From assembly GCA_963796955.1 (NCBI GenBank), contig CAWCNJ010000005.1, positions 32,001 to 96,000 on the forward strand: a stretch of DNA of 64,000 bases, given 5' to 3'. This DNA comes from Endomicrobiales bacterium. Its GTDB lineage: Bacteria > Elusimicrobiota > Endomicrobiia > Endomicrobiales > JALOBY01. The notes beneath the pieces are model-generated. The model did no database searches. It had not been told where the DNA came from and worked only from the letters and a program-made list of their open reading frames with translations. The translations under genes were made by a program, and so were the position numbers. Positions 44,201 through 64,000 of this stretch are shown here, in pieces; positions within the stretch are counted from its first letter, which is position 1, and each line of letters opens with the position of its first letter.

Positions 44201-44375
44201 ACTCATGTCGTTCCTCGGGAATTATTATTGAATTTTCCTGGCAAATATTGTTTATCAGAGAAGAAAAGGCGACCCTTAAGTCTTCCTCACTAAAGACTTT
44301 CTCTTTCTTTGACAAAAAGAACTGGTAATATTTACCGTTCAATTTGTTTATCAATATATCTATATTTTTTATCAT
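41223..44375 (-). CDS. Type IIG-like fused restriction endonuclease/N6-adenine methyltransferase
   Basis: GRLDSLY...IIEYK (PD-D/ExK-like), LGEYYTP, DPTCGSG and VGNPPW; C-terminal TRD-like region; strongly AT-rich. Confidence 0.85.
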   Translation of the reverse strand: MIKNIDILINKLNGKYYQFFLSKKEKVFSEEDLRVAFSSLINNICQENSIIIPEERHEYTVFRGRLDSLYGEVIIEYKEPKYLKDDNSSVANSKAIDQVKRHIEGINKKQNKQINRYLGIIFDGDRVVFIRRRNNIWDIENPAIVNESTFKLLLQRIFSIGLQGKALVIDNLVRDFSILSNESRNDIRELVVNFIENNKGKNNLLFEQWKVLFREVCGYDFETKKSEITELLKLLEIEHESIELAIVIFAIQTYYAIFIKLLAAETLTYFRHRETSFLTALSNLKAQMTSLESGELFRREGINNFIEGDFFNWYLLCWNDKIEKILARIVNKLKDYDFSSLNLEPKEAKDLIKNIYHYLLPQNLRHSLGEYYTPDWLAEFVVEKLGIKYSSGFRALDPTCGSGTFLSILIGNIKTYSGLKKKEELKKILQSVIGIDLNPLAVISAKTNYLIALSEHLQYIDECGIDIPIYLSDSLLAPLEYKTRDKDIFSLPTKVGIFKIPVSLIANKQLDTFLNLVIECVEIELNCKDFIVKLCKLGLTISESDEVLLVEFYKILLDLQKKGLNGIWAKIIKNIFAPAFFDNFDYVVGNPPWINWQNLPEDYRNSVKKYWDDYRVFLHKGLRARLGSAHDDISVLLTYVVIDKYLTNGGMLGFVLPQNLFQASGGGDGFRRFQVKDNDHVKVIRVDDFAPVQPFADMGASNKPAVILLKKGEKTQYPVKYFRWSKKNRGIIKSDQPITAIMPLIKSAELCAEPIKDEKINSSWLIAKPHKIGMLKKLVGCSSYKARKGVDFSLNGLFWGKISPSKYKNTVIFNNLFDVGDKKMKPYEVFIEKGLIYPMLRGKDIERWCCNPRCYSIIPYSLDGKCLSDNALKIDYPFAYKYFYRTDPTIERWLENRGIFQKHLKSANAPKHALYDIGKYTFSEYKVVWKALANGMIASVVSSMNTSLLSERMIIPDHNVLMVPFKNENDAFFLCGILNSKAVNDFVVSYISWFYSSHILEHINIPSYDKANKDHNKICKIAKIAHQKRGLPENLQNELNLITEKILLHA

Positions 44376-44397
44376 TTTATAATTCAGATTGGCCGTG

Positions 44398-45798
44398 CTA
44401 TTTCTTTCCAAGATCCCGTAGCGTAAGAAGGATGCTTCCATCTTGTTGAGTTCTTCTTTGATCAAACAATTCTATTGCCTTTTGCTCTATTAGCTTTCTG
44501 TTTGCTTCAAAAATACTGTCAGGTTCATTACTCGATTGATCATAATCTCTAAGGTCATTTCCATATACCTTACATTTTACTAACCTGTTTTCGATTTCTA
44601 TTGTGAATTCGAAAATATCAGACAATGAATTATGAAATACTTTCATATATTTCTTTTTTCCAGCCTGTAAAACACATTCTTTTTTTATCGTGAGCAACTT
44701 ATCTTGACTAAGCCTTTCGCCGTCCATTTTCACTCCGCCCTGTTCGATTAACCGCCTTGCCTCGTTCTTGGTTCCAACTAAACCAGAATTAACGAGCAAA
44801 TCGACAAGCTTAATCTGCTCGACGCCACAATTATATTTCTCCATTGTTTCTGGCATCTCTTTCTTGCTGAAGACGTTGTCGAAATCCTGGCGCGCGGCTT
44901 TTGCGGCCTCAGCGCCGTGGTAGCGAGCGGTTATCAGCTCACCCAGGTTGGCCTTGGCTTCACGTGGGTGCAGCGCTTTCACCGCTGGCATATCTTCTTC
45001 TGTCAGCAGCTCGTAGTATTTGTACATTAATATATCAGATATAGACATCAGCTTGCCGAACATATCTTTCGGCGTATCATTCAGGGCGATGTAATTGCCG
45101 TACGATTTGGACATCTTGCGAACGCCGTCGGTGCCTTCAAGCAGCGGCATGGTAATGATAACCTGCGGCTCCTGCGCGTTATCCCGCTGGAAATCGCGGC
45201 CCATAAGCAGGTTGAATTTCTGGTCGTTGCCGCCCATCTCGATATCGGCTTTCACCGCAACGGAATCGTAGCCCTGCAACAGCGGATAGAGGAATTCCAC
45301 GATGCTGATCGGCTGGCCGCTCTTGTAACGCTTCTCAAAATCATCGCGCTCCAGCATTCTGGAAACCGTGCTTTGGGAGGCAAGCTTCAGCATGCCCTCG
45401 GCGCCAAGAGGTTTCAGCCAGGTGCTGTTGAAAACCACCTCGGTCTTGCTGCGATCGAGGACGCGAAACACCTGGTCCTGATACGTTTCAATATTGGCCG
45501 CAATAGCTTCTTCGCTCAACATCGGGCGCGTTTCCGAGCGGCCGGAGGGATCGCCGATACGGGCGGTAAAATCGCCGATAAGGAAAACGACCTTATGGCC
45601 CAGATCCTGAAACAGCTTTAGTTTGTTCAGCAGCACGGTGTGGCCCAGGTGAATGTCGGGGGAGGTAGGATCAACGCCCATCTTAACGCGCAGAGGAATG
45701 CCTTTAGCGAGTTTACGCTTAAGTTCCTCTTCAGAGATAAGGTCGGTGCAGCCGCGCTTTATACGGGCGATATCGGAATTTATTTTATGTGATAGCAT
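44398..45798 (-). CDS. tyrS: Tyrosine--tRNA ligase with a ~79-aa C-terminal extension
   Basis: [17 protein letters not shown] and an S4 domain ([11 protein letters not shown]...QAGKKK), then extra sequence. Confidence 0.95.
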
Positions 45799-47801: not shown

Positions 47802-48710
47802 TTATCGGACAACGTCAGTGGCTTCTGAAACTGCTGAACCTGAAAGCTGAACGCCCAATTGAGTCGCGACCAGCGTGTTAAGAGAATAACGGGACTTGCG
47901 GGGACGCTGAGATTTAACCGTTCCCGGCTTTTCGCCGTTAAGGATGCGGGCTCCCAATTCACCGGCCTGACGGCCGATATCGCGGTAGTCACAATCTACC
48001 GATATAACCGCTCCGCCCTTTGTGAAAGCCAGCGCGAGGCCGATCACCGGAACCTTGTTTTTCTGACTCTCCAGCAGCAAGGTCTTTACCGCCTGTCCAA
48101 AATATACCTTGGTATCCAGTATCATCATCACACAATCCGCCTGCCCGCCCATAAGCGCCTGTACGGCCGGAAGGAAGTCCATCTCGGAGGCAACACCGCG
48201 GCCTACTGCCTTCAAACCCACGGCACTACAGGCGGCCGATATCTCATCAAAACTCGCTTGATTGTCCGGCGAATACAACACACCGATGCGCTTGACTGAC
48301 GGCAGCACCGCTTTTACCCGTTCCACACGCAGCATGGGGGGAATATCAACCGAAACGCCGGTAGCGTTCGCCGTATCGTGCTCCGGGTTATTGGAAACCA
48401 ATGTGTACACACCCGGTATTGCAGCCAATTCTGATTTTAAAAGGCCGGATGCTTCACCGCCAACGGTAAGTACCAGATCCGGTTTTTGCGCCTGTACCTT
48501 TGAGGCAACCGTCGCAGAATCCTGCTCTTTCAGACTATAGATCACCGGCTGCCCGGGAAATCCTTTGTCGGAAAGAGCTGAACAAAATCCGTCCTTCAGG
48601 GCTTGCACGGAATCATTATTAAGCGAAAGAATAACGGCCACCGATTTCGCCTGTACCTGCGAGACCGCTGCACAGAAGACTATTGAACATATGATCAGTT
48701 TACGGATCAT
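47802..48710 (-). CDS. Periplasmic substrate-binding protein (ABC_sub_bind-like), paralog 2
   Basis: Signal peptide; ATGVS, KRIGVLY and [17 protein letters not shown]. Confidence 0.85.
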
Positions 48711-48743
48711 CCTGGAACTCTCCCGGGCGCAAGCTCTTTCTTT

Positions 48744-49649
48744 TTACCTAACTACTTCTGAAGCGCCTGACACAGCAGAACCGGCAAGGGATTTCCCCAG
48801 CTGGGTTATCATCTGCATGTTAAGGGAGTACTGGGCCTTGCGCGGTCTCTGGGACCTGATAGCAGAAGGTTTTTCTCCCTTCAGGATGCGGGCGGCGATC
48901 TCCCCTGCCTGGCGGCCAAGGTCATGATAATCGCAGTCAACCGACATTGCGGCACCGGCCTTGGTGAACATCATGGACAAGCCGACAACCGGCACTTTAT
49001 TTTTCAGGCTTTCCAGCAGCATCGTTTTAACCGACTGTCCGAAATATACCTTCGTATCGATTATCATCAGAATGCAATCGGCCTGGCCTCCCATAAGCGC
49101 CTGCACAGCCGGCAGAAAATCGCCTTCCGTTGCCACGCTGCGGCCCACGATCGCAAGGCCGGCAGACTTGCCGGCGGCAGCGATCTCATCAAAATTCTGA
49201 GCGGTGGCCTGCGAGTACAACACACCAATGCGCTTGACATCCGGCAATACGGACTTGACGAGCTCAAGGCGCAGCTGGGGCGGCACGTCTATTGATATGC
49301 CGGTTAAATTCGCGGCGTCGAATTCAGCATTATTCGTTACTATGGTGTACACACCCGGGATCCCCTGCAGGGACTTTACCAGTTTTGCGGCTTCACTGCC
49401 GACGGCCAGGGCCATGACAGGGGCTTGCGCCTGCACCAGAGAGGTGATCGTGGCCGCATCCTTTTCCTTCAGATTATAGACGGTTGGTTGTTCTGCAAAA
49501 GACCGGTCGGCCAGGGTAGATAAGAAACTTTCCTGCATGCCCTGCACCGAGTCGTTATTCATTGAAAGGATTATCGCGACACCGCCGGCACATGCCTGGG
49601 CGATGCCGATCAGCAGCACACATGCAGCCAAAAACAGAGAACGCACCAT
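48744..49649 (-). CDS. Periplasmic substrate-binding protein (ABC_sub_bind-like), paralog 1
   Basis: NLTGIS, KRIGVLY and GRQAGEIAARILKGEKP; clearly similar to its neighbour. Confidence 0.85.
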   Translation of the reverse strand: MVRSLFLAACVLLIGIAQACAGGVAIILSMNNDSVQGMQESFLSTLADRSFAEQPTVYNLKEKDAATITSLVQAQAPVMALAVGSEAAKLVKSLQGIPGVYTIVTNNAEFDAANLTGISIDVPPQLRLELVKSVLPDVKRIGVLYSQATAQNFDEIAAAGKSAGLAIVGRSVATEGDFLPAVQALMGGQADCILMIIDTKVYFGQSVKTMLLESLKNKVPVVGLSMMFTKAGAAMSVDCDYHDLGRQAGEIAARILKGEKPSAIRSQRPRKAQYSLNMQMITQLGKSLAGSAVSGASEVVR

Positions 49650-50269: not shown

Positions 50270-51343
50270 GTGATGATACCTTTAGTAATTTCAATTATCA
50301 TTTTTGCAGCCGTGATAGCCGCCGTCTCGATCTTTTTTGCTTTGAGACAGAAACCTGATAACTCTGCCGCCCTGCTGCAGCAGCAAATGGAGGGACTCAG
50401 GCGGCAAATGGCCGACAGTATTCAAAAAAACACCGATGCCATGAACCAGCAGCTGAATAATATTACCAGCCAGCTCATGAATTCCCAAAAGACGGTGAAC
50501 GAGCGGCTGGACAACGCGGCCCGGGTGGTGGGTGATGTGCATAAGGAACTGGGATCGCTTGCCAAGGCCAGCGAACAGATATTCAATGTGGGGAAAGACA
50601 TAGCGGGTTTGCAGGAAATTCTGCGCGCGCCGAAATTGCGCGGTTCTTTAGGCGAGCTTTTCCTTGGGGATCTGCTGGGACAGCTGTTACCCGCTGCGCA
50701 TTTTACGATACAACATAAATTCTGCAGCGGCGAAATAGTGGATGCCGCCATCCGCCTGGGCAGCGGCCTGGTACCGGTAGACTCGAAATTTCCGCTGGAA
50801 AATTTTAAACGGGTGCTGGACACGACCGACGAGGCGGAACAAAAAGCAGCCCGTAAGCAATTCGGCCGCGACGTAAAAAAACATATCGACGCGATCGCGT
50901 CAAAATATATCTTACCTGACGAAGGCACGTTCGATTTCGCGTTGATGTATATTCCGGCGGAAAATGTATATTATGAAACGATAATAAAAGATGAGGATAC
51001 CACTGAAAGCAGCCTCTCGGCATACGCGCTTTCGAAACGGGTGATACCGGTTTCCCCTAATTCACTTTTCGCGTATTTGCAGGCGATCGTGCTTGGTCTG
51101 CGCGGCCTCAGGATAGAGAAAAGCGCGCAGGAGATAATTGCGCACCTGGCGCGGCTGAAGGGCGATTTCGCCCGGTTCAATGAGGAATTCGACACACTGG
51201 GAAAGCATATAACCAACGTAAAAAACCGCTATGACGACGCCGCTAAACGGCTGGAGAAATTCGACACCAAACTCCAATCCTCCGGCGACGACCAGCTGCC
51301 TGCCGCCGCCTGCGCGCCGGAACAACCAAAACTGCATCTTTAA
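50270..51343 (+). CDS. rmuC: DNA recombination protein RmuC
   Basis: N-terminal TM plus coiled coil; RGSLGE, VDSKFP, KYI, DFALMYIPAE and VSPNS. Confidence 0.92.
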   Translation: MMIPLVISIIIFAAVIAAVSIFFALRQKPDNSAALLQQQMEGLRRQMADSIQKNTDAMNQQLNNITSQLMNSQKTVNERLDNAARVVGDVHKELGSLAKASEQIFNVGKDIAGLQEILRAPKLRGSLGELFLGDLLGQLLPAAHFTIQHKFCSGEIVDAAIRLGSGLVPVDSKFPLENFKRVLDTTDEAEQKAARKQFGRDVKKHIDAIASKYILPDEGTFDFALMYIPAENVYYETIIKDEDTTESSLSAYALSKRVIPVSPNSLFAYLQAIVLGLRGLRIEKSAQEIIAHLARLKGDFARFNEEFDTLGKHITNVKNRYDDAAKRLEKFDTKLQSSGDDQLPAAACAPEQPKLHL

Positions 51344-51356
51344 TAAACAACAACCG

Positions 51357-54300
51357 TTATCCTGCCCGCAGCACTTCTGCGACAGCCTCACTATCAAAGA
51401 TGGTTTGGTCTATGCGGATATTTTTCGGCAGTTTGCGCTCGGCGTAAGCGACGATCAGGGCGATCACTGTATTTATGTCCTGCGGTTTGGTTGAATCGTG
51501 CAGGCTGAACACGTTTTCCCGCAATTTGCGGTAGAATTCGGCGGTGTTCGTGAGTTCTTTCCTGGCCGCCAGATCAGGCGGTATTGCCGTACCTTTGGCC
51601 TCCAAAGCGCCGGCCTGCTGCTCGATCAGATCCTTGCCGAGGATCACCTCTAAATCGCCATCTACAAGACAATCATGTTCCCCATTCCCCAAACGGGATT
51701 TTGCGAACATTTTTTCTGCTAACGCAATTAAGAAGGCCTTCTCAAGCACCGGGTACTGCGCAGGATCTTCCTTCTGTATTTTCTCTAGATACGTTTTCAC
51801 AGCACCGCTTTCATGGATACCCATTGCGGTCTTTATGGCGGCAACATTTCCGGTTTTAGCGTCTTTCGCAAACTGTACCGTATCCGCAGGCATGGCTGGC
51901 AGAACATCGCGGTCCCAGGAGTAGGCTACATTTTTTACATAATTTTCCGACAATGTGTTGGCGCTGTACAGGCTGAGCACCGCCGTCTTAAGGATCTCTG
52001 CAAGTGCGGTCCGGTCGGTGATCGGACGATCACCGCCCTTGAGCAGCCCCTTAAGCTCGCTCAGCTTCAGGATCTTACACGGCGACTTGGAGCTGCCCAA
52101 CTTGCTGCGCAGGGCGGGAGCGCCGTCATAGCCGGTAATGTCTTCGGCTCGCATGGCCGCCTGATCGATGTAACGTATCAGCTTTTGTTGATCGCCCCTG
52201 CCGGAAATATAGCCATAAAATCCAAGAGCGCGATACCGGTCTGTAGTGCCAATGTCGGCGGTAAGGTCAACGCATATGCGCACCCCTCTTTTGCGGGCCA
52301 GTTCGACCAGCGCCTCTATCCGCTCGTCACTTATACCCCCGAACACTGCGGGCTCCACGATCATCTGCCCGTTGCCTGCTTTATTGAAAGCTTCAAGATT
52401 CGCCATAAAATCAGTAATATTCGCCTGACCGTCAAGGCGAATAAATATATTCTGCGGCAAAGCCTCGCTTTCAGCCTTTCTAATAACCTCAAGCTCGGCA
52501 AGCTTAACCGGAATAGCCTCTCTCCTGCTTAAACCCGGCACATCAAAGAAATCAGATGAAACGGCCACACTACCGTCTGACATGTTTTGTATAGACTTTT
52601 CTGATGCAGAATGATCAATGATAAACCCTGGGACAAAACCGCGGGAGCGCAGATCGGAGTTCGTCGCCATAAGCAGATCAGAAAGTTTTTCTTCCGCCCA
52701 TGCGTCACCTTTCATACCTGGTTCGTCCGTGATCGCACCATTGATGGTCTGCGCAACAACATGCGCGTCCGAACCCTCGGAAAACACCGTCAACGCCCCT
52801 TCTTTACTACATGCCCATATAGGTTTACCATTAACGTTTATCCCTAAATCCTGCCAATCATGATCCTCCCAGCCGTCCGGCCTTTTATCCATGCAATAAA
52901 TTTCAGTGCGCACCCGCCCTGCAGCATCGATCGACGCTGCACCAAAGTCCTTCACCGCCAGCTCTAACTCCGCCGCCTTTACAACATGCCAGTCAAGCGA
53001 CGCTTCAGCAGCCAGTTTAGGTATAAAGGAAGCAGGTGGCATTGGAATTTTTAATTGTTCGAAATTCAGCTTATTGGAAGCCTTACTCACGTCAATAAGA
53101 TCCGGGTTAGGGTTGCCGCTTTTAAAGCTTACGTAACCTGCCGTTTCTTTTTCGGAAAGTGTTGTCACTAATCTGCCGTCAAAGCTTTTCCAGACCCAGC
53201 CTTTTCTACCGCCCAATCGGCTATGCCCGACTACCAACGTACCGCCCGGAACCCCCATTCTCGACAGAAAATCCAGTACATCTCGTTTTGTAAACTCATT
53301 AATCGGATTATCCGTTTCCTCTCTTCCCCATATCAAGTCCTCTACCAGGCGGTTGGCACAATCCAGCGGATTTGCTTTCTCGATCGCCTGCGCATCCGCG
53401 TCGCCTTTTACCGGGCCGCCGTGCGCCGCGACAAAATCTTTCCCAAGTACCGCAAGCGGACTTAACCCAAGCGCGCTATTGTAGAGCTTTAAGTAATCCC
53501 GGCCATATTGCCGGATAAGCGCGTTTTCATACTCCGCAAATTGGTTAACCATTTTGAAATTAGTAGTTCGTCTGGGCCCCATCCGTATGTCCAGGTCGTG
53601 ATTGCCGGCGACGTAATACACCCCATCGGGGTTCTGTATGGTTAACTGCATTATGAACTGCATCGTTCCTATTGATGAGCCCATTTCTTCTATACCATAC
53701 AAATCTTCCCGGTGAACCGCATCGCCCAGGATTACGATAACCGCCTCCCCCCGCTGTATCTTGCCGAAGTTGTCATTGGTGTTAAGTATCTTTTGCAGGT
53801 TAGATAAGTTGGCGTGCAGGTCTCCGACAATTATTACTTCTTTTCCCTCAGGCAGTTTTGACAGGTCAACCAGAGCGCCGCGCTGGTATTTTCCCTGCCG
53901 CTCCTTAAGTACTTTGTTATACTCCTCAAGCTGGGCAATAGCCTCTTCTTTACCAAGCAGCGTTTTCTTTATTTCCTCTTCAAAGCGCAATTCATTTGCG
54001 AGCCGGTCCTCGTGGTAATTTCCATTTGACCTTATTTCTTCCAAGAGGAGGCCCAGATCAACCGACGAGGCACTACCGTCCGTGGTCAGCAGACTGTAGC
54101 GTATTGGTTTTTTAAAGGTCAGAACCCTGCCGATGTTCACGACGGTCGTTTTGATCAGTACGCCGAGATTATAATGCCAGTGGACGTTGACGATAGCTTC
54201 GGCTATGGCGTTTGAGAGCGCCGTATTGTCCAGCAGACCGGTCCATTCGGTTCCGGGTGGGATAAGGTCACGAACGACGGCCTCGATGTTTGCCAGTGCG

Positions 54301-57300
54301 CTAACGCGAGCGCGGCGATCGGGGCTTGCGAGCCATTGCGCGTATCTCATACCCTGCGGTTTGTGAGCGTCTATGAACGAATCGTATATCTTTGTATTGC
54401 CGCCGATCTTCAGCCCGATGGCGCACGATATCTGCACCAGCTCCGCGCGAGCCGCTCCCAATGGCCCGCGCTCGATAGATACCCAGGCAACGACGAACCC
54501 CCTGCCGAGCCAGAGAATATTGTGGTTGTAAATGAACCGCATGACAGGGTGTTTGGCGATATAATTAGTAACCGTTGCATCGGTGGTAAGCGGTCTTGGG
54601 AAGCCACTGTTATTGGGGTTACCTTTACCGGCTATCAAACCAAAAACTTCTCTTACTGCTCGGTTCATGTTATGTTTGGAAAGATCTATCTCTTGAAACA
54701 TGCGGGCCGCATCTGCATGCAGGGAACCGCCGGACCTGAAAGCATCGCTGCGGTCATAGAGAGAGTTTTCTATCAACTCTATCCAGGGCGTGAAGTAATA
54801 TTCGTTTGAGTCCACGCCCTTGCCGTTTGCTTTACAATATTCCAGGTGTGACGCTTTCAAGTCGCGCAGCAGCGTTGCGGTCCACACTGGCGGGTTGGCG
54901 CTTATCCACTCAAAATCGCCGGCTTGGGCTCCTTTTGCGTTGGCAAACAAAATCATGAGCGCGTCTGCAACTTTCTTTGACACGCCATTGAATTCTTCCG
55001 CAGAAAACTTTTTAACGATCGCCTTGAATACGCGTGAACGGCGTATAAGAACCGCTGTTTGCGCCGGCGACAGCGTTTCCAGCATCTTTAAGATCTGCGA
55101 GCGGTTGCGCAGACTATTAACGATAAGCGGGCTTTCTTTCCAATCTACTGCAAGCAGCGTACCGTACGTGTCCATTTGGCCATCCGAAAGAAATACATTG
55201 TAAAGGAAACTAATATCTTTTCTAAAACCCAGTTTCCCCATAATCCCAGTAAAGCTTGTTCTGACGTAATCCACTGCGAAACTGTCTAGGCTGTTAACCT
55301 GGGCGGCCAGTGCGACCACCGCGCCTAATTGAGTATCAATATCCTTTAAGCTTTCCCTGTCTGGTTGGCGAAGGTCTTGGGGTTGAACGATCCCGCCAGC
55401 TGCCCGCGCCTGCGCAGCGATCTCCGGCTCGTGCAGTATCGCGTCAAGGGTGGAACCGAACGAAGTTGTTGCATAGTATTCCGCTTCCTCTTTGTTTATC
55501 TCACGCCGTTCGTAAGCTGCACGAAGCAGATATTTACCCAGAAGTTTTTCAGGGTCCGCTTTATCCCAGCCCAAACGCGTATACTTTAAGGTGTAGCAAA
55601 ACAACATCAGTTTGGCGGGTTCTGAATATTTATCTATATACAGTGCATCGTTAAATAGAGCCCTTCTTCCTGTTTTGCCCCGGGTTTCGACCATAACATT
55701 CCCGGCATTAAAATCAGGGATAAATTCGCCCATGTTTCTGTCATACATAGGGAAGGCGTACCCTTTGTTGATCAATAGGTCAAAAGCATTGAACACTAAT
55801 TCCCATTCTTCATTCGACATTTGCCCTGTCTGGGCAGCTTTCTCAATATCAATACCGTCGATATATTCAACTTCCAGGTAACCACATTTTGAACCTGAGG
55901 TACTGCCAGCCCTGAATGCGCGTGGCACCGGGATGCCAGCATCGAACAATTCAACGTACGCATCTTTTTCTTTTTGCGCCCCTTGCTCTGAGCTATGCGG
56001 CATAACCCTTATCGCTATTGACCCATCCCTGTAGACCGCCGATAGCTTACCCGCGCCAAGTTTTGTAAGCGGCTTGCCATTAAGCACCAGATTCTGCCCA
56101 TCAAATTTATATGAATAAAGGGAGCGGATTAGATAACTTGATAGTTCCTGTGAAAAGCCTGCAAAATCTAAGAAAGGAAAAAGCCTGGCAATTGCATGGA
56201 CAAGGTTTTGGGAGATAATGGAAATTGATGAGTTAATTACTTCACTATCTTGCTTGGCGAATTCTTGAATGTTGACAAATTCCGGGGATAAGGCGGTCTC
56301 TGTTGCAAGCCATTGTTCGCAAGCATGCCACTGCTCGAACGGCGACAAGTCACCGCGAGGTTTATAATTGGCAAGGAAGTATTTCAGAACTTTTGCTTGA
56401 ATAGAGTTCGGTTCGTTAAGCGCCATATGCTCGGCCAGTTCGTGGGAGAATCGCGCAATTGCTTCGTTTGTATTTTTGTATGCTGCGAGGTCGACGAGCA
56501 GAACGTCTTTGTCCGCCTGAGCCTTGGCGAAGGAGGGCATATTGGCAAGGCCTATGCCATCATCGGTCGCGATAACAGCACCGGTGTGCCTGTTGAATTT
56601 TACGGTCTTTATCTCCGGCAGTGCCTTGGCTGTACGCAAAGCATTGAACTGGTCGAGCAGCCCTCTGGCAGCGGGCGAAATTTGAGCGATCTGGTCGAGG
56701 GTAAATTCTTCGATGCCATCGGGTTTTGAAGGATCGAAACCGAACCGCGCAAGCACGTTCTCTGCCAGTTTTGTCTCATCTTCGCAGGAAGGTACCATGC
56801 CGATTTGCTTAAGGGTCCGGATTGCTCCGGTTAATGCTGCACGGCTGAACCCAAGGAAACCGGATTTTATGTCAGCATGCGGCGCGACAGAGGTCTCATT
56901 CATGCTATCAGGCACAGCCCAGGTTCTTTGCGGTTCTCTGGAAGAGACTGCTGATTCATTGTTCTGGCTACGCCCTTTGATTTGAAAAACTTTCAGGGCG
57001 GGCCACCAAAGAATCGCAAAAAGTACGGCGCCGGCGATAATAAAGGGCATTGAAGGCACTGCGACGAACGCAATAAAAAGTACGGTGGCGCCGCACATCC
57101 AATATAATGAGCTCACAACAACAATGCCGGCTGAATTTTTAGACAGCTTGCCGGGCAACGACCAATTTAATGCCTTGAACGCAAATTTCGGAAGTTTTGA
57201 CTTAAGCATTGCCAGTACGTTCAGGTTGCTCTCCTGAAAGATCAGTGGCGTGAACATCCCCCATATCATGCCTCCTACTGTACTGACAAGATTTCTTTTG

Positions 57301-60300
57301 ACCGTATCGGGCTGAAGGAGAGAGACAAATATTATAACTGACCATGCGAAAAATGAAAGAAAAGTATAATCGGCGCTGTTTTTTCTCAGACGGTCAACCG
57401 ATTTGCTGTAGCTTAGCCCTTCTTTGAAATAGTATCCTGCGAACTGGTTCACAGGATTAAATAACAGGGGTGAAAGAATTATCTGGTTGACTAAGGTTTG
57501 CGAAATTTTCCCGTGAATAAAGTTTATAACCCATCCGTAAACGAACAGACCATATACCGGTGCAAAGAAAAGAGCTGCGGTAAGCGCGTACCGCAGGATA
57601 CGCCAGATGTCATTTTTAGCAGTTTTATGCAAAATATTTTTATCAATACGTTGCGATATATATGTGGCTACGATGGATGACAAAAACCCTTGTGTCATTA
57701 ACTGTGGTAATACGGATAATTTATAGTGGCCAAAAATGCTTGCGCCGTGAACACCAAGAACAAAATGGGCGAAAACAGCAAAAAGCCCAATAAGCGCCGT
57801 GTATATCAGAGATTCTTTTACCCTTACAGCTGTCGAAGATGGGGCCGGTTCAGGTTGAGGGGTCGCGTTTTCAGAATATTCGTATCGAAGTGGACTTAAG
57901 AAGGAATTCACCTTTGCCAAACCGTAGGCTTTAATCGTCTTTTTATATTGACTATGTGTATCACGATTTTCATATAAGCGTGCCAGCGCACTTATAACAT
58001 TATCGCGGTTGGCCCTGTAGAACGCGTTTTCATGCAGATAACCGTCAAATTTACGAATATAGTCTTGTTCGTTCAGCCCGGGCTTTTCCAGCAGATCATT
58101 TATATCATCACGTGTAAGCCTAAAGAACTCCAGGACGGCCAAAGCTGATACATCCCCATTCACTCTTTTATGGACACTGTTGACGATCTGCATATCAAAC
58201 CCGGCCCGATCTATATCCTCCGATCTTCGATAGTATCTGAGGAAGGAAGCTATTATAAAATTAGTGAGATTGACGGACGAGGTAGAACGCCACGACACAT
58301 CTTCGTGGATAAGATGCGTTTCGGGCGTCATAAGATACCCGAAAAGAAAGCCGCATTCCCTGATACGCCGTGCCCATTCAGAATTTCCATCGTTGTTGTG
58401 GTCGGGAGGAAAAGGCATGGCGGTAGCGATCTCATCCGGAACGACCATTAACATGCCATCCATTTCTGAAGAATAATATACCCCGTTGCCGAGAGGATAT
58501 TTGAGCTGATTCGACCGCGGCCTGAGCGGCTCGCCGCTCTCGAATACCGGCAGTGACGCAATGCCGATCTCCGGACGATCTTTTAGTAATTTGATCGCCC
58601 GCGGAATAGCGGGGCCCACCATTTTGACATCATCATCTAAATATACACGATATTTGCCTGATGAATGGATGGTTCCAAGATTCATGTTTACGCGAATATT
58701 ATTTATGTTCGAAACGACTATCTTAACCGGGTAGTGAACCGACTGGCACAGGCGTGTGAGAGCGATCTCGCGTTCCCTTGAAAAATTGTTCCTGTCAGCG
58801 ATCACCAACACCAGTTCAACGGCATGGTCCTTCGCAAGGACTTCCAATTCGTTCAAACGTCTTTCAAGGTTTTCGCTCCGGTTTGAAAGTGTAACCATAG
58901 CCACGCTTATCTCACGCGCCGCCCCATCCTTATTGAATGCTCTTACCTCTCCTTCCTGGTACTTCCGCACTTGCGCAAAATACTCTTCGGCTACCCGCAC
59001 GAATTCCGGCCTTCTTTGCCGGAATTCCTTGCGCGCGTCCTCCATTTTCATTGCATCGTCCTGGTCTAGCTTAACACGAACCGGCACAAATTCAATCTTG
59101 CCGTCGATAAGAACAGGCCAATCATTCGTTTCCATTCTTTGCTGCATCAATGTATATGCGATCTCGTCGCTTTCTGTTGTAGCTTTGGGAGCCGGAGCCT
59201 TAGGTGGCGTAGTTGTACTAAGGGACGTGGTTAAGTAATCAAGTAGTGCCGTAGATACCTGCGCAAGGTTGACGACCGGGAAGATGCGGACTAAGGCTTC
59301 GGCAAGGCTTTGGGCGATCGTTGGGAGGGAGGTTTCAATAAGTTTTGCATCTTGTTGGGCAAATTCTTTTAATGCATCAAAGTCTTGTTTTGAAATTCTG
59401 TTTTTGACAAGTATTCCCTGGATCTCGGGCGAATCGTGGGCAAGGCCGGAAATCCATTTTTGGCAGGCGTGCCACTGCTCAAAGCGTGTGACCGGGAATA
59501 TGTCGCCGCGGGCCTTATGGTAGCCAACGAAATACTCCAGTACCTTCGCCTGAATGGAATCTGGTTCATTAAGCGCCATATGCTCGGCCAGCTCGTGGGC
59601 AAAGCGGGCCAGCGCTTCTTCAGGGGAGCTGTAGCGGGCTGCGTCCATAGTGAGCGTTCCGGTATTGCCGGGCGCATCCATATTGGCTAGGCCCATGCCA
59701 TCTTTGGTGGCAATTATTTCGCCGGTGTGTTTGTTGAATTTAACGGTAGTTATCTCCGGCAGACCTTTGGCTTTGCGCAAGGCGTTGAATTGGTCGAGAA
59801 GACCTTTGGCAGCGGGCGAAATTTGAGCGATCTGGTCGAGGGTAAATTCTTCGATGCCATCGGGTTTTGAAGGATCGAAACCGAACCGCGCAAGCACGTT
59901 CTCTGCCAGTTTCGCCTCATCCTCACCTGAGGGCACTAGGCCAACCTGTTTGAGGGTCTGCATCGCGACTTGCAATGCTTTTTTACTAACACCTAGAAAT
60001 CCCCCTGCCGCATTTCGATGGGATCTTACCTCGTAACAACTAGCAGTGATATCATATCCGTTAAATGTTTCTGTCTGGTCCAGCGTTAGGGCAGAACCCA
60101 GAACAAATGCCTGGAACGCCGATTTTGTTATCTGCGCCCTGTTGCTGAGCGCGCCCTGCATATCAAGCGGTGCGAGCACTTTTACTTTCTTGCCCGTCTT
60201 CGCTTCGATCGTGCGGGCAATATCTTCAGCGTACCCGATCACCCCTTCCAGAATATCATCCGTGCTGTATTTTTCGGTGATGCGCGCTGAAGGGTCAATG

Positions 60301-63300
60301 GCGCGCAGTATCAGCACCGGGTTACCGCCAACCGTGTTTTCCAGTAACAGCGTGCTGCCCGCAAACTGCTCTTCTTCTCCTGAGCCTTCTGATAAAGCTA
60401 CCGCCGTTAAATTCTTCTTTTCCATGATGTTGCTGACCGCTGTGTAGCAGGCATCGCCAAGGTCCCCGGCCATCTCGCCGATAACTCCCTTTGTCGGGCG
60501 CGCGGTGATACGCAGCTTGTCGCCTTCTATTGTCCGGATCCTGCCCAGCTCTTCTTCAAATGTTTTTATCCACATCTTTTTTAAGATCGATCTCTTCATT
60601 TCATCCGGTGTTTGGGCAAGTACATGATCTTTCAGCATCACGTTCCTCATCTCTATCAAAGCCGCGACGCTTTGCACCGACAAACCCGATCGCACTGACA
60701 TCAGCAAACCGGTAGTGAATTCCTGATACTCGGGAGTTGATAGCAGTTGCGCCGCCATGATCGTGATCACCGCTGATGACGGCGTCAGTACCGCTGCGAG
60801 CTCGATGAGGTTGGTTGCATTTGCGACCGCCTGCTTGTCAGTGTCACTCAGCGCGGCTTCAGCGTATTCCGCCTTCAGTTTTGCCAGAACCTTCTCGGGC
60901 GTTTGCTCCTGTTTGACGATCTCTTCCGCCTTCAAAATCGCTTCCTTGAATTGATCAAAAGCGTCCGCGGCCACATTGGAGAATGTTGCCTTGCCGGCCT
61001 TCCGTACTTCAAAGGTATAAGAGATGTTTTCCGCGTACTCAGGTTTTAACGGCGGCACCATACCCGCCGCTTTTCGCGCATTGAAATTTCTGATAAATTG
61101 TGCGATATCCAATCCTCTTTTTGACCCATGCCCCCAGTTCGGCGCGCTGTTAAAACCTGTCACCATGCCGACAATGCCCATCATAAGGGGGCTGTATGTC
61201 CAGTTGTCGGGAATATCCATTTTATCGAACAACTGCCGGTTAATGCTGCGAACCAGTTCCGCCAATTGTCTTATGCCCGCTTCGCCCTGCTCCGTGATGC
61301 CCAGTGCCTTCATTTCCTGCGCCAGGTCCTCGTTCGGCTGCATCACCCGCCTCAGGCAGAGAAACATCTCGAAAAAGGTGCGGTTCGTCATAAAGCCAAA
61401 GCGCGGCAGTGCTTCCTTGAAATAGAGTTCCCATACGGTATCGCTATCTTGCGGCGTTAAACACATACCCTCGATCGCATTTGCCGCGCCTCTCAGGAAA
61501 CTTAACCGTTCATTCCGGCGCTGACTGCTGTACTGCTTTTTGACTATCTCGAACGATCGTGGACCGATCCCGCTGTTGCCGCAAACTCGTACCAGCTCAA
61601 GCTTGGCTTCCAGCTCTACCCCGTGCGAGGCGCCGATGAATTCCTGAAGCGCTTTCATATTTCCTGCTGTTGCAACAACAACAGGGATATCAACGAAAAC
61701 GTTGTAGGTGCTTTCATCGGAAAGCCGTTTGCCAAGTTCAGCAAAATACGTAAGGATTCCCCGGGCGGAATCATCGTCCTTTAAACTATACTCGCCTGCT
61801 TGTTTAACGAACGCCTCGTATTGTTCAAATATCTTTCCGGCAAGCTGACCGGCACCCAGTCCTGAATCAATAAAGGCCAGCAAAAAGGGCTGAGTCGAAC
61901 CGACAGTGTACGCCTTCGTGATAACAAACTGGCGGGCTGTATCATTGAATAAAAATCCCAGCAACGCATTTTGGCTTTCAATGGTTTTCGCCGTACGTAC
62001 GCGTTCATAGATCAGTTTGAGGCACTGGAATTGTGCCGTTGTCGGTTTACCGAAATACCAGCCGGTCATCATGTCGAACCAGCCGTCAACGTCAAGGGTT
62101 GGCATAAACTCTCCGGGAGCATCCATTGCCCGACACTGATGGGTTTTAAATGCAGCGCGCACGTTACAGATCATTTCGGCGGTCTTGAACCTGTTCAATG
62201 TTGCCATGCCGCACAGCGTTGCAAAAAGAAAGATATTTCCTGCATGCAATTCACCGCTTTCAACAAGAGCAATTATTCCTGTACCTGCTGTGCCAGCAAC
62301 CTGTTTCTCGTCAAGGAAACTAAACAAAACCGAAACAATATACAATGTTTCAGGTGTAACCACCTTATGATCAGCGAGTACTTTCAGGGCCTGGTAACGT
62401 GCAGCCGGGTCGTACACTGTAGAGTTTTTATTTGGAACCAACAGCTCGTTTACAACCGTAATGTTGTCTGGCCGAAGAACCCCGGCCTTAGCAAAGGCCC
62501 CCAGGGCTGCAAATGCATCTGTTTTGCAATCGTAATATTCCTCAAAATTTCCACACTGAATACGTTCGTACAGACCCCGCAGGGCCTGGAAATTGTCTTT
62601 GGAAATTGCGCCCGTGGCAAGTACAGCATTTAAAGCGGCAAAGGCTGGTTCGAACTTCTCTTTTCCAACTGTTTGCAGGAATTTTGCGCAATCATCAATG
62701 TTTGACTTGTCAAAGATGTGCAAATGCACCAACAGCTCGGCTGCCTGTCGGGCGAGGGGTTCGTCATTCATCTCGGCGTTCGCCAGAATAGCATCCACTG
62801 CATCCCGGTCGCGGGCGGCGAACATATCTTTGGTTGGCTGGCGGGCGAGAAATTCCTTCGCATTCGCACTGCCGTGTTCAGCAAGAAAATCCATTGCGTG
62901 CAGCAACGGACGCAAAGCCTCAATGCGCTCATCGTCATGGCCCGCTAGGCGGTTGATCAGCCGTTCCACCGTTTCAGTGCATTCACCCGCCGCGCCATCA
63001 CCATGCAAAAACACGCGGGCGCGCACTATGGCGAAGGCTTTTTCGGCGGTAGCCACATCCATCTCGGATGGAAGGTCCGCAAGTCCGCTAAACAACTTGT
63101 CCGCATCCTGCGGAGAAACCAGCATACCGGCTCGCCACAGGTGTTCCATCGCTTCAAAAAATGCCTGTTTACCGTCGTTCCCTGAGGATGTTGTCATCCA
63201 GGTCGTTAACTGGCCGAAAGGGAAGTGCGGTATATTACTTTCATTGTCTTGCCTGGCTCGTTTCGCCGCCGCCATCTCCGCGCCGGTGATCACGCCGGAT

Positions 63301-64000
63301 CGCACCAGCAACTCCAGGCTTTCGGCAGGAACCCGGCATTCCTTCAGCCAGTTGAACACAGGGTGAGCGACACCGCCAAGCAAGTTCTCAGCAACCGCCT
63401 GCGGCCACATACTTTCGACGGGCGACGACATCGTTCGCTCCTGCGACATGGCAATACCGGGGCGGTCATAATAATAACTCCACGCTCTTTCCACGATCTT
63501 GTTATCCATCAGGAAGCTCAGCAACCGAGCGGAAACAAGGCCGGTGTTTCCATGACGACCAGCCTGTTCCAGGCATTTTTGAACGACACCCGCCCTGCCG
63601 GCGTCATCCTCCAAAAGCAGCTTCTCGCCCAATTCAACCATGCCCGACTTGGTTAGTGTTTCCAGCGCCTGAAGGGAGGCGGCAATGTTTGTATCCGAGC
63701 TCTCTGCGTAAGACGAATATTCCAAATCTTTACCCAATGCCAGCTCACGCATTATATCGGCGCTCAATATCTCATTTGCATACCCGGCTTTTTTCAGCAT
63801 GGCTAGATACCATGCCGCATACCTGCGCGCAAAAGCATCTTTGGCGCCCAGCATCGTTTTCATGTCTTCAATAATATGCAACCGGGCGACATCATTTCCA
63901 TCGATCAGCTTCTTTTCAGCCAGCGTCAAGGCAAGCAATGAAGCATCTTCTTTCAGTTTGGGTTCTTTCAGGCATTCTTCCAGCATGGTTACGTATTTTT
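51357..64000 (-). CDS. Giant multidomain protein (at least 4209 aa; 5' end probably outside the window)
   Basis: Uninterrupted 12.6-kb ORF whose frame stays open to the window edge. Contains a GT2 DxD motif, a TM bundle, kinase-like and metallophosphoesterase motifs, and a duplicated module. Confidence 0.92.
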   Translation of the reverse strand, partial: KYVTMLEECLKEPKLKEDASLLALTLAEKKLIDGNDVARLHIIEDMKTMLGAKDAFARRYAAWYLAMLKKAGYANEILSADIMRELALGKDLEYSSYAESSDTNIAASLQALETLTKSGMVELGEKLLLEDDAGRAGVVQKCLEQAGRHGNTGLVSARLLSFLMDNKIVERAWSYYYDRPGIAMSQERTMSSPVESMWPQAVAENLLGGVAHPVFNWLKECRVPAESLELLVRSGVITGAEMAAAKRARQDNESNIPHFPFGQLTTWMTTSSGNDGKQAFFEAMEHLWRAGMLVSPQDADKLFSGLADLPSEMDVATAEKAFAIVRARVFLHGDGAAGECTETVERLINRLAGHDDERIEALRPLLHAMDFLAEHGSANAKEFLARQPTKDMFAARDRDAVDAILANAEMNDEPLARQAAELLVHLHIFDKSNIDDCAKFLQTVGKEKFEPAFAALNAVLATGAISKDNFQALRGLYERIQCGNFEEYYDCKTDAFAALGAFAKAGVLRPDNITVVNELLVPNKNSTVYDPAARYQALKVLADHKVVTPETLYIVSVLFSFLDEKQVAGTAGTGIIALVESGELHAGNIFLFATLCGMATLNRFKTAEMICNVRAAFKTHQCRAMDAPGEFMPTLDVDGWFDMMTGWYFGKPTTAQFQCLKLIYERVRTAKTIESQNALLGFLFNDTARQFVITKAYTVGSTQPFLLAFIDSGLGAGQLAGKIFEQYEAFVKQAGEYSLKDDDSARGILTYFAELGKRLSDESTYNVFVDIPVVVATAGNMKALQEFIGASHGVELEAKLELVRVCGNSGIGPRSFEIVKKQYSSQRRNERLSFLRGAANAIEGMCLTPQDSDTVWELYFKEALPRFGFMTNRTFFEMFLCLRRVMQPNEDLAQEMKALGITEQGEAGIRQLAELVRSINRQLFDKMDIPDNWTYSPLMMGIVGMVTGFNSAPNWGHGSKRGLDIAQFIRNFNARKAAGMVPPLKPEYAENISYTFEVRKAGKATFSNVAADAFDQFKEAILKAEEIVKQEQTPEKVLAKLKAEYAEAALSDTDKQAVANATNLIELAAVLTPSSAVITIMAAQLLSTPEYQEFTTGLLMSVRSGLSVQSVAALIEMRNVMLKDHVLAQTPDEMKRSILKKMWIKTFEEELGRIRTIEGDKLRITARPTKGVIGEMAGDLGDACYTAVSNIMEKKNLTAVALSEGSGEEEQFAGSTLLLENTVGGNPVLILRAIDPSARITEKYSTDDILEGVIGYAEDIARTIEAKTGKKVKVLAPLDMQGALSNRAQITKSAFQAFVLGSALTLDQTETFNGYDITASCYEVRSHRNAAGGFLGVSKKALQVAMQTLKQVGLVPSGEDEAKLAENVLARFGFDPSKPDGIEEFTLDQIAQISPAAKGLLDQFNALRKAKGLPEITTVKFNKHTGEIIATKDGMGLANMDAPGNTGTLTMDAARYSSPEEALARFAHELAEHMALNEPDSIQAKVLEYFVGYHKARGDIFPVTRFEQWHACQKWISGLAHDSPEIQGILVKNRISKQDFDALKEFAQQDAKLIETSLPTIAQSLAEALVRIFPVVNLAQVSTALLDYLTTSLSTTTPPKAPAPKATTESDEIAYTLMQQRMETNDWPVLIDGKIEFVPVRVKLDQDDAMKMEDARKEFRQRRPEFVRVAEEYFAQVRKYQEGEVRAFNKDGAAREISVAMVTLSNRSENLERRLNELEVLAKDHAVELVLVIADRNNFSREREIALTRLCQSVHYPVKIVVSNINNIRVNMNLGTIHSSGKYRVYLDDDVKMVGPAIPRAIKLLKDRPEIGIASLPVFESGEPLRPRSNQLKYPLGNGVYYSSEMDGMLMVVPDEIATAMPFPPDHNNDGNSEWARRIRECGFLFGYLMTPETHLIHEDVSWRSTSSVNLTNFIIASFLRYYRRSEDIDRAGFDMQIVNSVHKRVNGDVSALAVLEFFRLTRDDINDLLEKPGLNEQDYIRKFDGYLHENAFYRANRDNVISALARLYENRDTHSQYKKTIKAYGLAKVNSFLSPLRYEYSENATPQPEPAPSSTAVRVKESLIYTALIGLFAVFAHFVLGVHGASIFGHYKLSVLPQLMTQGFLSSIVATYISQRIDKNILHKTAKNDIWRILRYALTAALFFAPVYGLFVYGWVINFIHGKISQTLVNQIILSPLLFNPVNQFAGYYFKEGLSYSKSVDRLRKNSADYTFLSFFAWSVIIFVSLLQPDTVKRNLVSTVGGMIWGMFTPLIFQESNLNVLAMLKSKLPKFAFKALNWSLPGKLSKNSAGIVVVSSLYWMCGATVLFIAFVAVPSMPFIIAGAVLFAILWWPALKVFQIKGRSQNNESAVSSREPQRTWAVPDSMNETSVAPHADIKSGFLGFSRAALTGAIRTLKQIGMVPSCEDETKLAENVLARFGFDPSKPDGIEEFTLDQIAQISPAARGLLDQFNALRTAKALPEIKTVKFNRHTGAVIATDDGIGLANMPSFAKAQADKDVLLVDLAAYKNTNEAIARFSHELAEHMALNEPNSIQAKVLKYFLANYKPRGDLSPFEQWHACEQWLATETALSPEFVNIQEFAKQDSEVINSSISIISQNLVHAIARLFPFLDFAGFSQELSSYLIRSLYSYKFDGQNLVLNGKPLTKLGAGKLSAVYRDGSIAIRVMPHSSEQGAQKEKDAYVELFDAGIPVPRAFRAGSTSGSKCGYLEVEYIDGIDIEKAAQTGQMSNEEWELVFNAFDLLINKGYAFPMYDRNMGEFIPDFNAGNVMVETRGKTGRRALFNDALYIDKYSEPAKLMLFCYTLKYTRLGWDKADPEKLLGKYLLRAAYERREINKEEAEYYATTSFGSTLDAILHEPEIAAQARAAGGIVQPQDLRQPDRESLKDIDTQLGAVVALAAQVNSLDSFAVDYVRTSFTGIMGKLGFRKDISFLYNVFLSDGQMDTYGTLLAVDWKESPLIVNSLRNRSQILKMLETLSPAQTAVLIRRSRVFKAIVKKFSAEEFNGVSKKVADALMILFANAKGAQAGDFEWISANPPVWTATLLRDLKASHLEYCKANGKGVDSNEYYFTPWIELIENSLYDRSDAFRSGGSLHADAARMFQEIDLSKHNMNRAVREVFGLIAGKGNPNNSGFPRPLTTDATVTNYIAKHPVMRFIYNHNILWLGRGFVVAWVSIERGPLGAARAELVQISCAIGLKIGGNTKIYDSFIDAHKPQGMRYAQWLASPDRRARVSALANIEAVVRDLIPPGTEWTGLLDNTALSNAIAEAIVNVHWHYNLGVLIKTTVVNIGRVLTFKKPIRYSLLTTDGSASSVDLGLLLEEIRSNGNYHEDRLANELRFEEEIKKTLLGKEEAIAQLEEYNKVLKERQGKYQRGALVDLSKLPEGKEVIIVGDLHANLSNLQKILNTNDNFGKIQRGEAVIVILGDAVHREDLYGIEEMGSSIGTMQFIMQLTIQNPDGVYYVAGNHDLDIRMGPRRTTNFKMVNQFAEYENALIRQYGRDYLKLYNSALGLSPLAVLGKDFVAAHGGPVKGDADAQAIEKANPLDCANRLVEDLIWGREETDNPINEFTKRDVLDFLSRMGVPGGTLVVGHSRLGGRKGWVWKSFDGRLVTTLSEKETAGYVSFKSGNPNPDLIDVSKASNKLNFEQLKIPMPPASFIPKLAAEASLDWHVVKAAELELAVKDFGAASIDAAGRVRTEIYCMDKRPDGWEDHDWQDLGINVNGKPIWACSKEGALTVFSEGSDAHVVAQTINGAITDEPGMKGDAWAEEKLSDLLMATNSDLRSRGFVPGFIIDHSASEKSIQNMSDGSVAVSSDFFDVPGLSRREAIPVKLAELEVIRKAESEALPQNIFIRLDGQANITDFMANLEAFNKAGNGQMIVEPAVFGGISDERIEALVELARKRGVRICVDLTADIGTTDRYRALGFYGYISGRGDQQKLIRYIDQAAMRAEDITGYDGAPALRSKLGSSKSPCKILKLSELKGLLKGGDRPITDRTALAEILKTAVLSLYSANTLSENYVKNVAYSWDRDVLPAMPADTVQFAKDAKTGNVAAIKTAMGIHESGAVKTYLEKIQKEDPAQYPVLEKAFLIALAEKMFAKSRLGNGEHDCLVDGDLEVILGKDLIEQQAGALEAKGTAIPPDLAARKELTNTAEFYRKLRENVFSLHDSTKPQDINTVIALIVAYAERKLPKNIRIDQTIFDSEAVAEVLRAG
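56120..56862 (-). repeat. Internal repeat module, copy 2, of the giant protein
   Basis: GFLG...KLAENVLARFGFDPSKPDGIEEFTLDQIAQISPAA...HELAEHMALNEP...FEQWHAC. Confidence 0.9.
59220..60002 (-). repeat. Internal repeat module, copy 1, of the giant protein
   Basis: Same motifs as copy 2; 59807-59912 is identical to 56666-56771. Confidence 0.9.

Follow-up and report, generated by a model that had tools for sequence, protein, structure and literature searches.

A repeated, predicted zincin-like module and a 106-bp identical tract in a giant multi-enzyme gene of an Endomicrobiales bacterium

A contig of an Endomicrobiales bacterium (CAWCNJ010000005.1) was analysed over positions 32,001 to 96,000, a stretch of 64,000 nucleotides referred to here as the window, which carries on its reverse strand a large part of a giant multi-enzyme gene with several copies of one protein module. 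Our preferred reading, put forward tentatively, is that the module is a repeated spacer of giant proteins and likely a zinc-dependent, self-cutting peptidase, and that a 106-bp tract of perfect identity between two of its copies is likely the scar of recent, unprogrammed recombination.

Module copies and the identical tract

Two in-frame copies of the module, 3,141 bp apart and perfectly identical over 106 bp, had been claimed in an earlier reading made from the letters of the DNA (hereafter the sequence-only reading), and this was confirmed by an exact match of positions 56666-56771 to positions 59807-59912. Retention of HELAEH and FEQWHAC in both copies was also confirmed. That reading noted only these two copies, both of which are real, but a third and diverged copy (copy 0), 37–38% identical to copies A and B and with the motif HEGGEY, was found in the same gene beyond the window. 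The gene, copies A and B and their principal features are as follows.

51357..63998, reverse strand: giant multi-enzyme gene, 3' two-thirds (start outside the window at G000:C5:102817)
59202..60011, reverse strand: module copy A (aa 3603-3872), with boundary motif, helical N-subdomain, zincin-like core and C-terminal helices
56106..56870, reverse strand: module copy B (aa 4650-4904), 63% identical to copy A in protein sequence
59807..59912, reverse strand: 106-bp tract of copy A (module residues 34-69)
56666..56771, reverse strand: 106-bp tract of copy B, exact match to that of copy A
59991..59999, reverse strand: F-L-G boundary motif of copy A, candidate cis cut site (family pattern small-[L/F/M]-[G/S/A])
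56850..56858, reverse strand: F-L-G boundary motif of copy B
59583..59597, reverse strand: HExxE (HELAE) of copy A; predicted ligand His3741, general base Glu3742 and ligand Glu3745
56430..56444, reverse strand: HExxE (HELAE) of copy B; His4792, Glu4793 and Glu4796
59469..59474, reverse strand: W-H of copy A; His3783, predicted third metal ligand
56325..56330, reverse strand: W-H of copy B; His4831, predicted third metal ligand

The 106 bp formed the maximal identical run, and the offset between its two occurrences (1,047 codons) was in frame. Identity held at 34/34 codons and 18/18 four-fold sites of the tract, compared with 58/118 codons of matching residues and 25/60 four-fold sites beyond it, in agreement with the earlier statement that synonymous sites match while the flanks have diverged. 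None of 200,000 permutations produced a run of identical silent-capable codons as long as the 37 observed. Since the tract lies in a part of the module that is weakly conserved across the family and in copy 0, protein constraint does not explain the identity. The tract has the marks of gene conversion, namely silent-site identity beyond chance, in register and not due to protein constraint. The proposal of recent homogenisation or gene conversion is supported, and two other genomes have similar tracts at the corresponding position of the module (see below). An older, nested conversion gradient over residues 70-112 was not significant (p 0.065). The tract is present exactly twice in the genome, with no third occurrence, and the longest match to it in copy 0 was 10–14 nt. 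Although the patch had been described as a perfectly identical core, residues 34-69 lie upstream of the HExxE motif, so that the tract is not the catalytic core.

Conserved residues and predicted fold

Among 69 non-redundant modules (14–30% identity, with 200 aa of upstream sequence), HExxE was present in 62 and missing from seven, and an aromatic-His pair was noted downstream in 63, compared with 5/69 for a control window. The Glu after the first His, the putative general base, was kept in 28/28 and 67/69 modules and position +4 was Glu in 26/28 and 65/69, with His in none of these columns. In 33 held-out domains, i.e., domains outside profile training, the His, the general-base Glu and the second Glu were kept in 29, 31 and 30, respectively. 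The family motif is HExxE rather than HExxEH, as had been proposed, because the last His of H-E-x-x-E-H was kept in only 2/28 modules, and the HxxEH motif of inverzincins (M16) is likewise not that of the family. Zincins of clan MA carry HExxH on the active-site helix, which the module does not, and the later helix presents a His in place of the Glu that serves as third ligand in gluzincins and in the metallopeptidase (MPTase) domains considered below. A boundary motif was evident 108–191 aa before the His, with L/F/M in 62/69 and G/S/A in 68/69 modules, and the stretch preceding it was more polar (0.61 vs 0.42).

The AlphaFold model of the module had a predicted local distance difference test (pLDDT) score of 86.8, and 89.4 for the core. 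The order of elements in the model (helix, three strands, motif helix and then the helix that bears W-H) would fit the order of secondary structure in zincins, and we infer a zincin-like module in which ligands 2 and 3 would be swapped, with a His-Glu-His set where zincins have His-His-Glu. Foldseek, suggested earlier as a check on the module, repeatedly returned zincin-fold rows, none of which reached significance by itself. The HExxH oxygenase ChlBH (E 0.04) was the top Foldseek row for the whole module, for which structure comparison gave Ste24p (Z 3.7, root-mean-square deviation (rmsd) 4.5, 140 aligned). Foldseek gave 46 rows for the core, all at E > 0.1, of which 22 were of what we take to be zincin folds, including selecase, jannalysin and TTHA0227. 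In VIA, a Z of 4.4 (rmsd 3.9, 79 aligned) was obtained for Acel_2062, a mini-zincin, and one of 4.2 for YbeY, tied with non-zincins.

Canonical zincin motifs were noted in sister giants. HExxH was found 36 times, compared with 3.1 expected, in 78 open reading frames (ORFs) of the family covered to approximately 10 kb; the occurrences were in 20 ORFs, with up to four in one, and at least 90% of the 19 copies picked have retained a downstream Glu. Peptidases of family C39 were present in two other giants of this genome. The earlier suggestion of an autoprocessing protease stands in part: conserved putative ligands, the boundary motif and the canonical zincins of sister giants lend it support at the sequence level, while the HExxE…H motif and the weak fold matches speak against it.

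In the Endomicrobiales giants L140, L120, L114, L130 and L133, the canonical HExxH…E gluzincin-like domains number two to four in each protein, and Pfam gave weak hits only for them (DUF6782, Peptidase_M78).

Distribution of the module family

With copy A as sole query, matches were obtained in 5/61 related genomes. Module profiles matched in 9, then 20, of 401 genomes of the phylum, and a profile of the distant form matched in 43/104 genomes of the order; of its 117 matches, 106 fell within open frames 1,000 aa or longer. When compared as profiles that had no members in common, the distant form matched the near one (probability 96.5%, E 9e-10). The HExxE module was found in none of 44 genomes of genus g11 (those listed were 0.6–1.4 Mb, and completeness varies) compared with 31/89 genomes family-wide. 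Up to four modules were present per ORF stretch, and the domains that follow the module varied between proteins (HD, GNAT, GT2, kinase-like domains and membrane segments). In a tree of 11 rows, the three copies of this genome formed one clade (97/94) and the two copies of genome G004 another (99/98), which suggests that copies arise, or are homogenised, within lineages.

A search of 1.84 billion proteins with copy A gave four hits, this protein included, with lengths of 1,870–7,422 aa. No homologue was found in a collection of proteins of at most 2,000 aa, a weak result given this size limit, and 103 pattern matches to copy A from a scan of genome contigs, which covered neither metagenome nor viral collections, included no relative. 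Six short-form copies of the module gave nothing significant in Pfam. In the ESM Atlas, only unnamed clusters were seen at 0.90–0.91, and the weak leads at 0.89 were LPD23 (on 18% of members) and SprT-like (on 15%). Contig C1 gave a weak tblastn match that was set aside, as it lies in an artefactual fold-back at one end; this contig opens (G000:C1:1-1525) with a frameshifted, 82%-identical fold-back of itself, an artefact of assembly.

Identical tracts in other genomes

The tract was at one stage taken as a one-off (1/55 pairs, 1/8 same-genome pairs, 11 closest modules), a view that was dropped when two more were found on wider sampling. Among the 33 same-gene module pairs of the wider sample, drawn from 20 ORFs, 26 shared at most 16 bp, one shared 29 bp and three, all from one gene, had cores that were 92–93% identical, while three diverged pairs with core identities of 60, 33 and 39% shared 106, 110 and 98 bp, respectively. 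Each of these three tracts was matched by 0/20,000 permutations. They belong to genomes of three families and start 105–128 codons before the His (for the G011 pair, the offset relative to the His at 2115 was -120), and each has two occurrences in its own genome. No DNA motif common to the three was visible. The edges of the G014 tract are abrupt and non-homologous. A further candidate, a 'repeat' of 98–99 bp, was discarded as a run of N.

Exact repeats were also found outside the module. Both copies of 18/23 same-strand exact repeats of 100–999 bp lay within ORFs 1,500 aa or longer, a class that accounts for 14% of the genome, and this concentration in large ORFs points to homogenisation as a common process among the giant genes of this genome. 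In-frame exact repeats of at least 35 bp were seen in other repeated domains as well (157 ORFs scanned). The genome contains recA, and no site-specific recombinase was found among the eight flanking ORFs scanned. None of the hallmarks of a programmed cassette locus, i.e., multi-copy recombination sites, silent cassettes or a dedicated recombinase, was evident from the occurrences of the tracts, the comparison of their sequences and these eight ORFs.

Several in-frame repeats in other giants were noted in passing. In L073:9803-17347, a 36-bp direct repeat with unrelated flanks (aa 604 and 1567) brackets approximately 960 codons that encode an oxidoreductase, a radical SAM domain and one HExxE module; the repeat resembles a target-site duplication. 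Perfect in-frame repeats of 641 bp, 1,084 bp and 70 bp were present in L176 (aa 3203/4338), L075 (aa 800/1489) and L114 (aa 707/1560), respectively. Two of the latter three lie in a membrane module with what we take to be a CPBP-like motif; PF02517 had no match in this genome.

The giant gene and its neighbourhood

The full ORF, as read on the contig, encodes 6,486 aa and extends beyond the window, and a public protein library holds an entry of the same length. A signal-like segment at the N-terminus is followed by the family-wide QDLHC domain, an APH-like kinase (E 5.6e-8), a weak 2H-phosphoesterase-like region (E 0.013), module copy 0, approximately 1,250 aa that lack a Pfam match, copy A, a GT2-like domain, a membrane block and copy B; the chain continues from copy B with a kinase-like domain, a metallophosphoesterase and a C-terminal region in common with a paralogue. 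The module is the sole internal repeat of this protein. Cargos, the N-terminal domain and the adjoining gene are located as follows.

58482..58883, reverse strand: GT2-like cargo (PF00535, E 3.1e-4, under the curated cut-off)
56958..57860, reverse strand: membrane block, with five hydrophobic segments above the scan threshold used
55518..56105, reverse strand: kinase-like cargo following copy B (PF01636 APH, E 8.4e-4, under the cut-off)
53028..54020, reverse strand: calcineurin-like metallophosphoesterase cargo (PF00149, E 2e-11)
L001:18139-19611 (G000:C5, outside the window), reverse strand: N-terminal domain of giants, which keeps QDxHC, EG, RN and GGFH
50270-51343, forward strand: RmuC-like gene (E 1.8e-12, under the cut-off), convergent with the giant gene across a 13-bp gap

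The sequence-only reading placed each copy immediately before an enzyme domain. Enzyme-like cargos do follow copies A and B, but the GT2 and kinase matches fall below the Pfam threshold, the GT2-like domain begins approximately 106 aa past copy A, and the region after copy 0 gave no Pfam hit below E 0.2. The kinase-like cargo after copy B has an Arg at what is presumably the position of the catalytic Lys of kinases. Third-position guanine-plus-cytosine (GC) content is uneven along the gene, 0.30–0.38 over the APH cargo compared with approximately 0.6, as expected for a mosaic gene.

The QDxHC N-terminal domain is common to six giants of this genome and to 261 public matches, from which 78 loci, nearly all titled Endomicrobiales or Elusimicrobiota, were kept. 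Its pattern resembles what we take to be the metal sites of TIKI, ChaN and EreA; no support for a TIKI/ChaN-like identity was found in Pfam or the PDB. The domain could be a second processing or metal domain.

The genome is 2.1 Mb and 81% complete. The eight flanking ORFs scanned include serS and genes for a SpoIID-like protein, an RND pump, an RmuC-like protein, a DNA methyltransferase and a chemoreceptor, and nothing among them indicated a phage, prophage or conjugative element. The RmuC-like gene is probably a chance neighbour; RmuC was not found in the other loci examined, which span only part of each neighbourhood. Elsewhere in the window, a low-GC (approximately 35–44%) gene for a 1,080-aa adenine methyltransferase-like protein (41223-44465, reverse strand) lies right after tyrS and was probably acquired, and tandem genes for similar substrate-binding-like proteins (47802-49649, reverse strand; 73% identical over 281 nt) lie between cheW-like and chemoreceptor genes.

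Proposed mechanism and alternative explanations

As we picture it, the His, the second Glu and the later His of the module would hold one metal, the same set of two His and one carboxylate as in HExxH…E gluzincins, and the first Glu would act as general base. Cutting by the module would take place in cis, at the L-G motif or next to it, so that the pieces set free would each begin with a module followed by the cargo downstream of it. Thermolysin-type enzymes favour a hydrophobic P1' residue. RecA-type conversion or crossover between copies may repeatedly re-homogenise one patch of the N-subdomain, and a crossover within the tract would add or remove a whole block in frame (1,047 codons that comprise core, GT2 and membrane block) and would leave cut site and core intact. 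Such shuffling would be an evolutionary route and not a demonstrated switch.

A number of observations weigh against this reading. With respect to the peptidase, the motif counts were drawn from profile hits and hence are biased towards the motif; bare HExxE was not enriched in the 78 ORFs in which HExxH was (15 vs 14.7 expected), and profiles of the HExxE and HExxH modules did not match each other (probability 0.6%). No significant match to the module was found in Pfam, PHROGs or PDB sequences, every Foldseek E value for the core exceeded 0.1, no Z value reached 5 and the top VIA row was a non-zincin. Most giants in this genome are without the module. With respect to recombination, the positional clustering is that of three tracts, with a post hoc chance of approximately 0.02, and third-position GC of the 3,141-bp block (181/315) matched that of its flanks (679/1168 and 331/568), so that the block does not look like a recent foreign insert.

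It is possible, if rather unlikely, that the module is a dead or merely metal-binding scaffold derived from a zincin, which spaces the cargo or helps it to fold and does no self-cutting. The lack of the defining HExxH motif, the weak fold similarity and the seven degenerate copies would agree with this, as would N4 virion RNAP, ArdC and TraC1, which, in the available text of Iyer et al. (PMC5512222), remain uncut on packaging or transfer despite their MPTase domains. The pseudopeptidases tabulated in the accessible part of PMC11266112, however, mostly lack the general-base Glu or ligands, whereas in the module this Glu is the best-kept residue, and the change from His to Glu is accompanied by a conserved His further downstream.

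With similarly low probability, the module may be an active metalloenzyme that is itself a cargo, i.e., a protease that acts in trans or an enzyme with other chemistry, such as the YbeY nuclease and HExxH oxygenase uses of the fold. YbeY ties with mini-zincins in VIA, ChlBH tops the whole-module Foldseek rows, and giants are collections of unrelated enzymes. Against this, the module recurs up to four times per ORF stretch amid unrelated cargos and is the sole internal repeat of this protein, and its conserved L-G motif lies where the linker borders the module, separated from the active-site motif by over 100 aa.

The sequence-only reading had seen the tracts as dedicated recombination anchors of a cassette-shuffling polyprotein system. 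That the tracts are maintained anchors for programmed swapping or excision of cassettes is now very improbable, and sporadic recombination at the module front is favoured. The similar length and module position of three tracts, the abrupt, non-homologous edges in G014 and the RmuC-like gene next to the 3' end of the giant gene would suit a programmed system. Against it, each tract occurs only twice per genome, copy 0 lacks the tract, 26/33 pairs have none, the tracts show no visible common motif, and neither a site-specific recombinase in the eight flanking ORFs scanned nor RmuC in the parts of the other loci covered was found; longer exact repeats are common in other giant genes of this genome, and exact repeats lie in other repeated domains as well.

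An artefact of assembly or polishing is the least probable explanation, for although tract lengths of 98–110 bp are close to common assembler k-mer sizes and the assembly is flawed at the start of contig C1, collapse requires near-identical copies and the flanks are only 60% and 78% identical, the tract is in register in both copies, the pattern recurs in three separate assemblies, and repeats of 400–1,500 bp were resolved in this one.

A bolder form of the preferred reading, which we consider doubtful, is that a His-Glu-His peptidase clan, hitherto undescribed, cuts Endomicrobiales giants at L-G and that the front of its module is also a recombination hot spot, which would make these proteins self-processing and self-shuffling polyproteins. 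No description of the module or the tracts was found in the searches made of the open-access literature, although bioRxiv supplements and the online alignments of Iyer et al. may hold HExxE variants. CLCA1, a literature match for 'HExxE', has the motif HEWAH in the accessible text. Whether giant bacterial proteins stay whole or are cut is an open question with unknown cut points according to the available part of West-Roberts et al. (10.1101/2023.11.21.568195), and for addressing it the module supplies a construct of approximately 300 residues, a predicted cut site and four residues that can be named. Since searches for HExxH miss HExxE…H, an active module would broaden the zincin signature. 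The recurring tracts of approximately 100 bp are a direct trace of how mosaic genes may gain or lose domains.

Comparison with known systems

Ectopic gene conversion between repeated coding modules is a general, RecA-dependent process. The tracts resemble its products in that a short stretch is perfect, silent sites included, between diverged paralogous copies; they differ in that they recur at one part of the module and that some join copies too diverged for RecA pairing outside the tract (core identity 33–39%).

The minimal zincins selecase, jannalysin and abylysin (4qhf, 4jix, 4jiu), Acel_2062 (3e11) and TTHA0227 (2ejq) were the best recurring structural neighbours of the predicted core, with weak matches (Z 2.6–4.4; E > 0.4). 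Minimal zincins are stand-alone HExxH proteins.

Giants of Omnitrophota and other PVC-group bacteria (10.1101/2023.11.21.568195; 10.64898/2026.06.07.730766), as described in the available portions of both sources, are alike in being long chains anchored to the membrane and composed of GT, kinase, phosphatase and HEAT/TPR domains, in the self-cleavage proposed for them and in that repeated domains are common. They differ in that the proposed cutters are C39 and S8 peptidases. Zincins and recombination are unmentioned in the main text of the former source, as are HExx motifs and recombination in the latter.

The closest parallel is with the polyvalent proteins of Iyer et al. (2017, PMC5512222), which, in the available text, carry one to five interspersed zincin-like MPTases for which autoproteolytic release is proposed, with some cases uncut. 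As in the giants, one to several MPTase copies lie between unrelated enzyme domains of a long chain, and, as predicted for the module, a three-stranded sheet, a motif helix and a later ligand helix with variable inserts make up the domain (PMC5512222). The MPTases have HExxH (or HExxxH) with Glu as third ligand and belong to phage and conjugative elements, whereas the module has HExxE with a later His and a conserved L-G boundary motif and belongs to chromosomal giants that contain membrane blocks and begin with a signal-like segment. Although it departs from zincins in both HExxH and the third ligand, our analysis suggests that the module most likely works like the MPTase spacer of polyvalent proteins.

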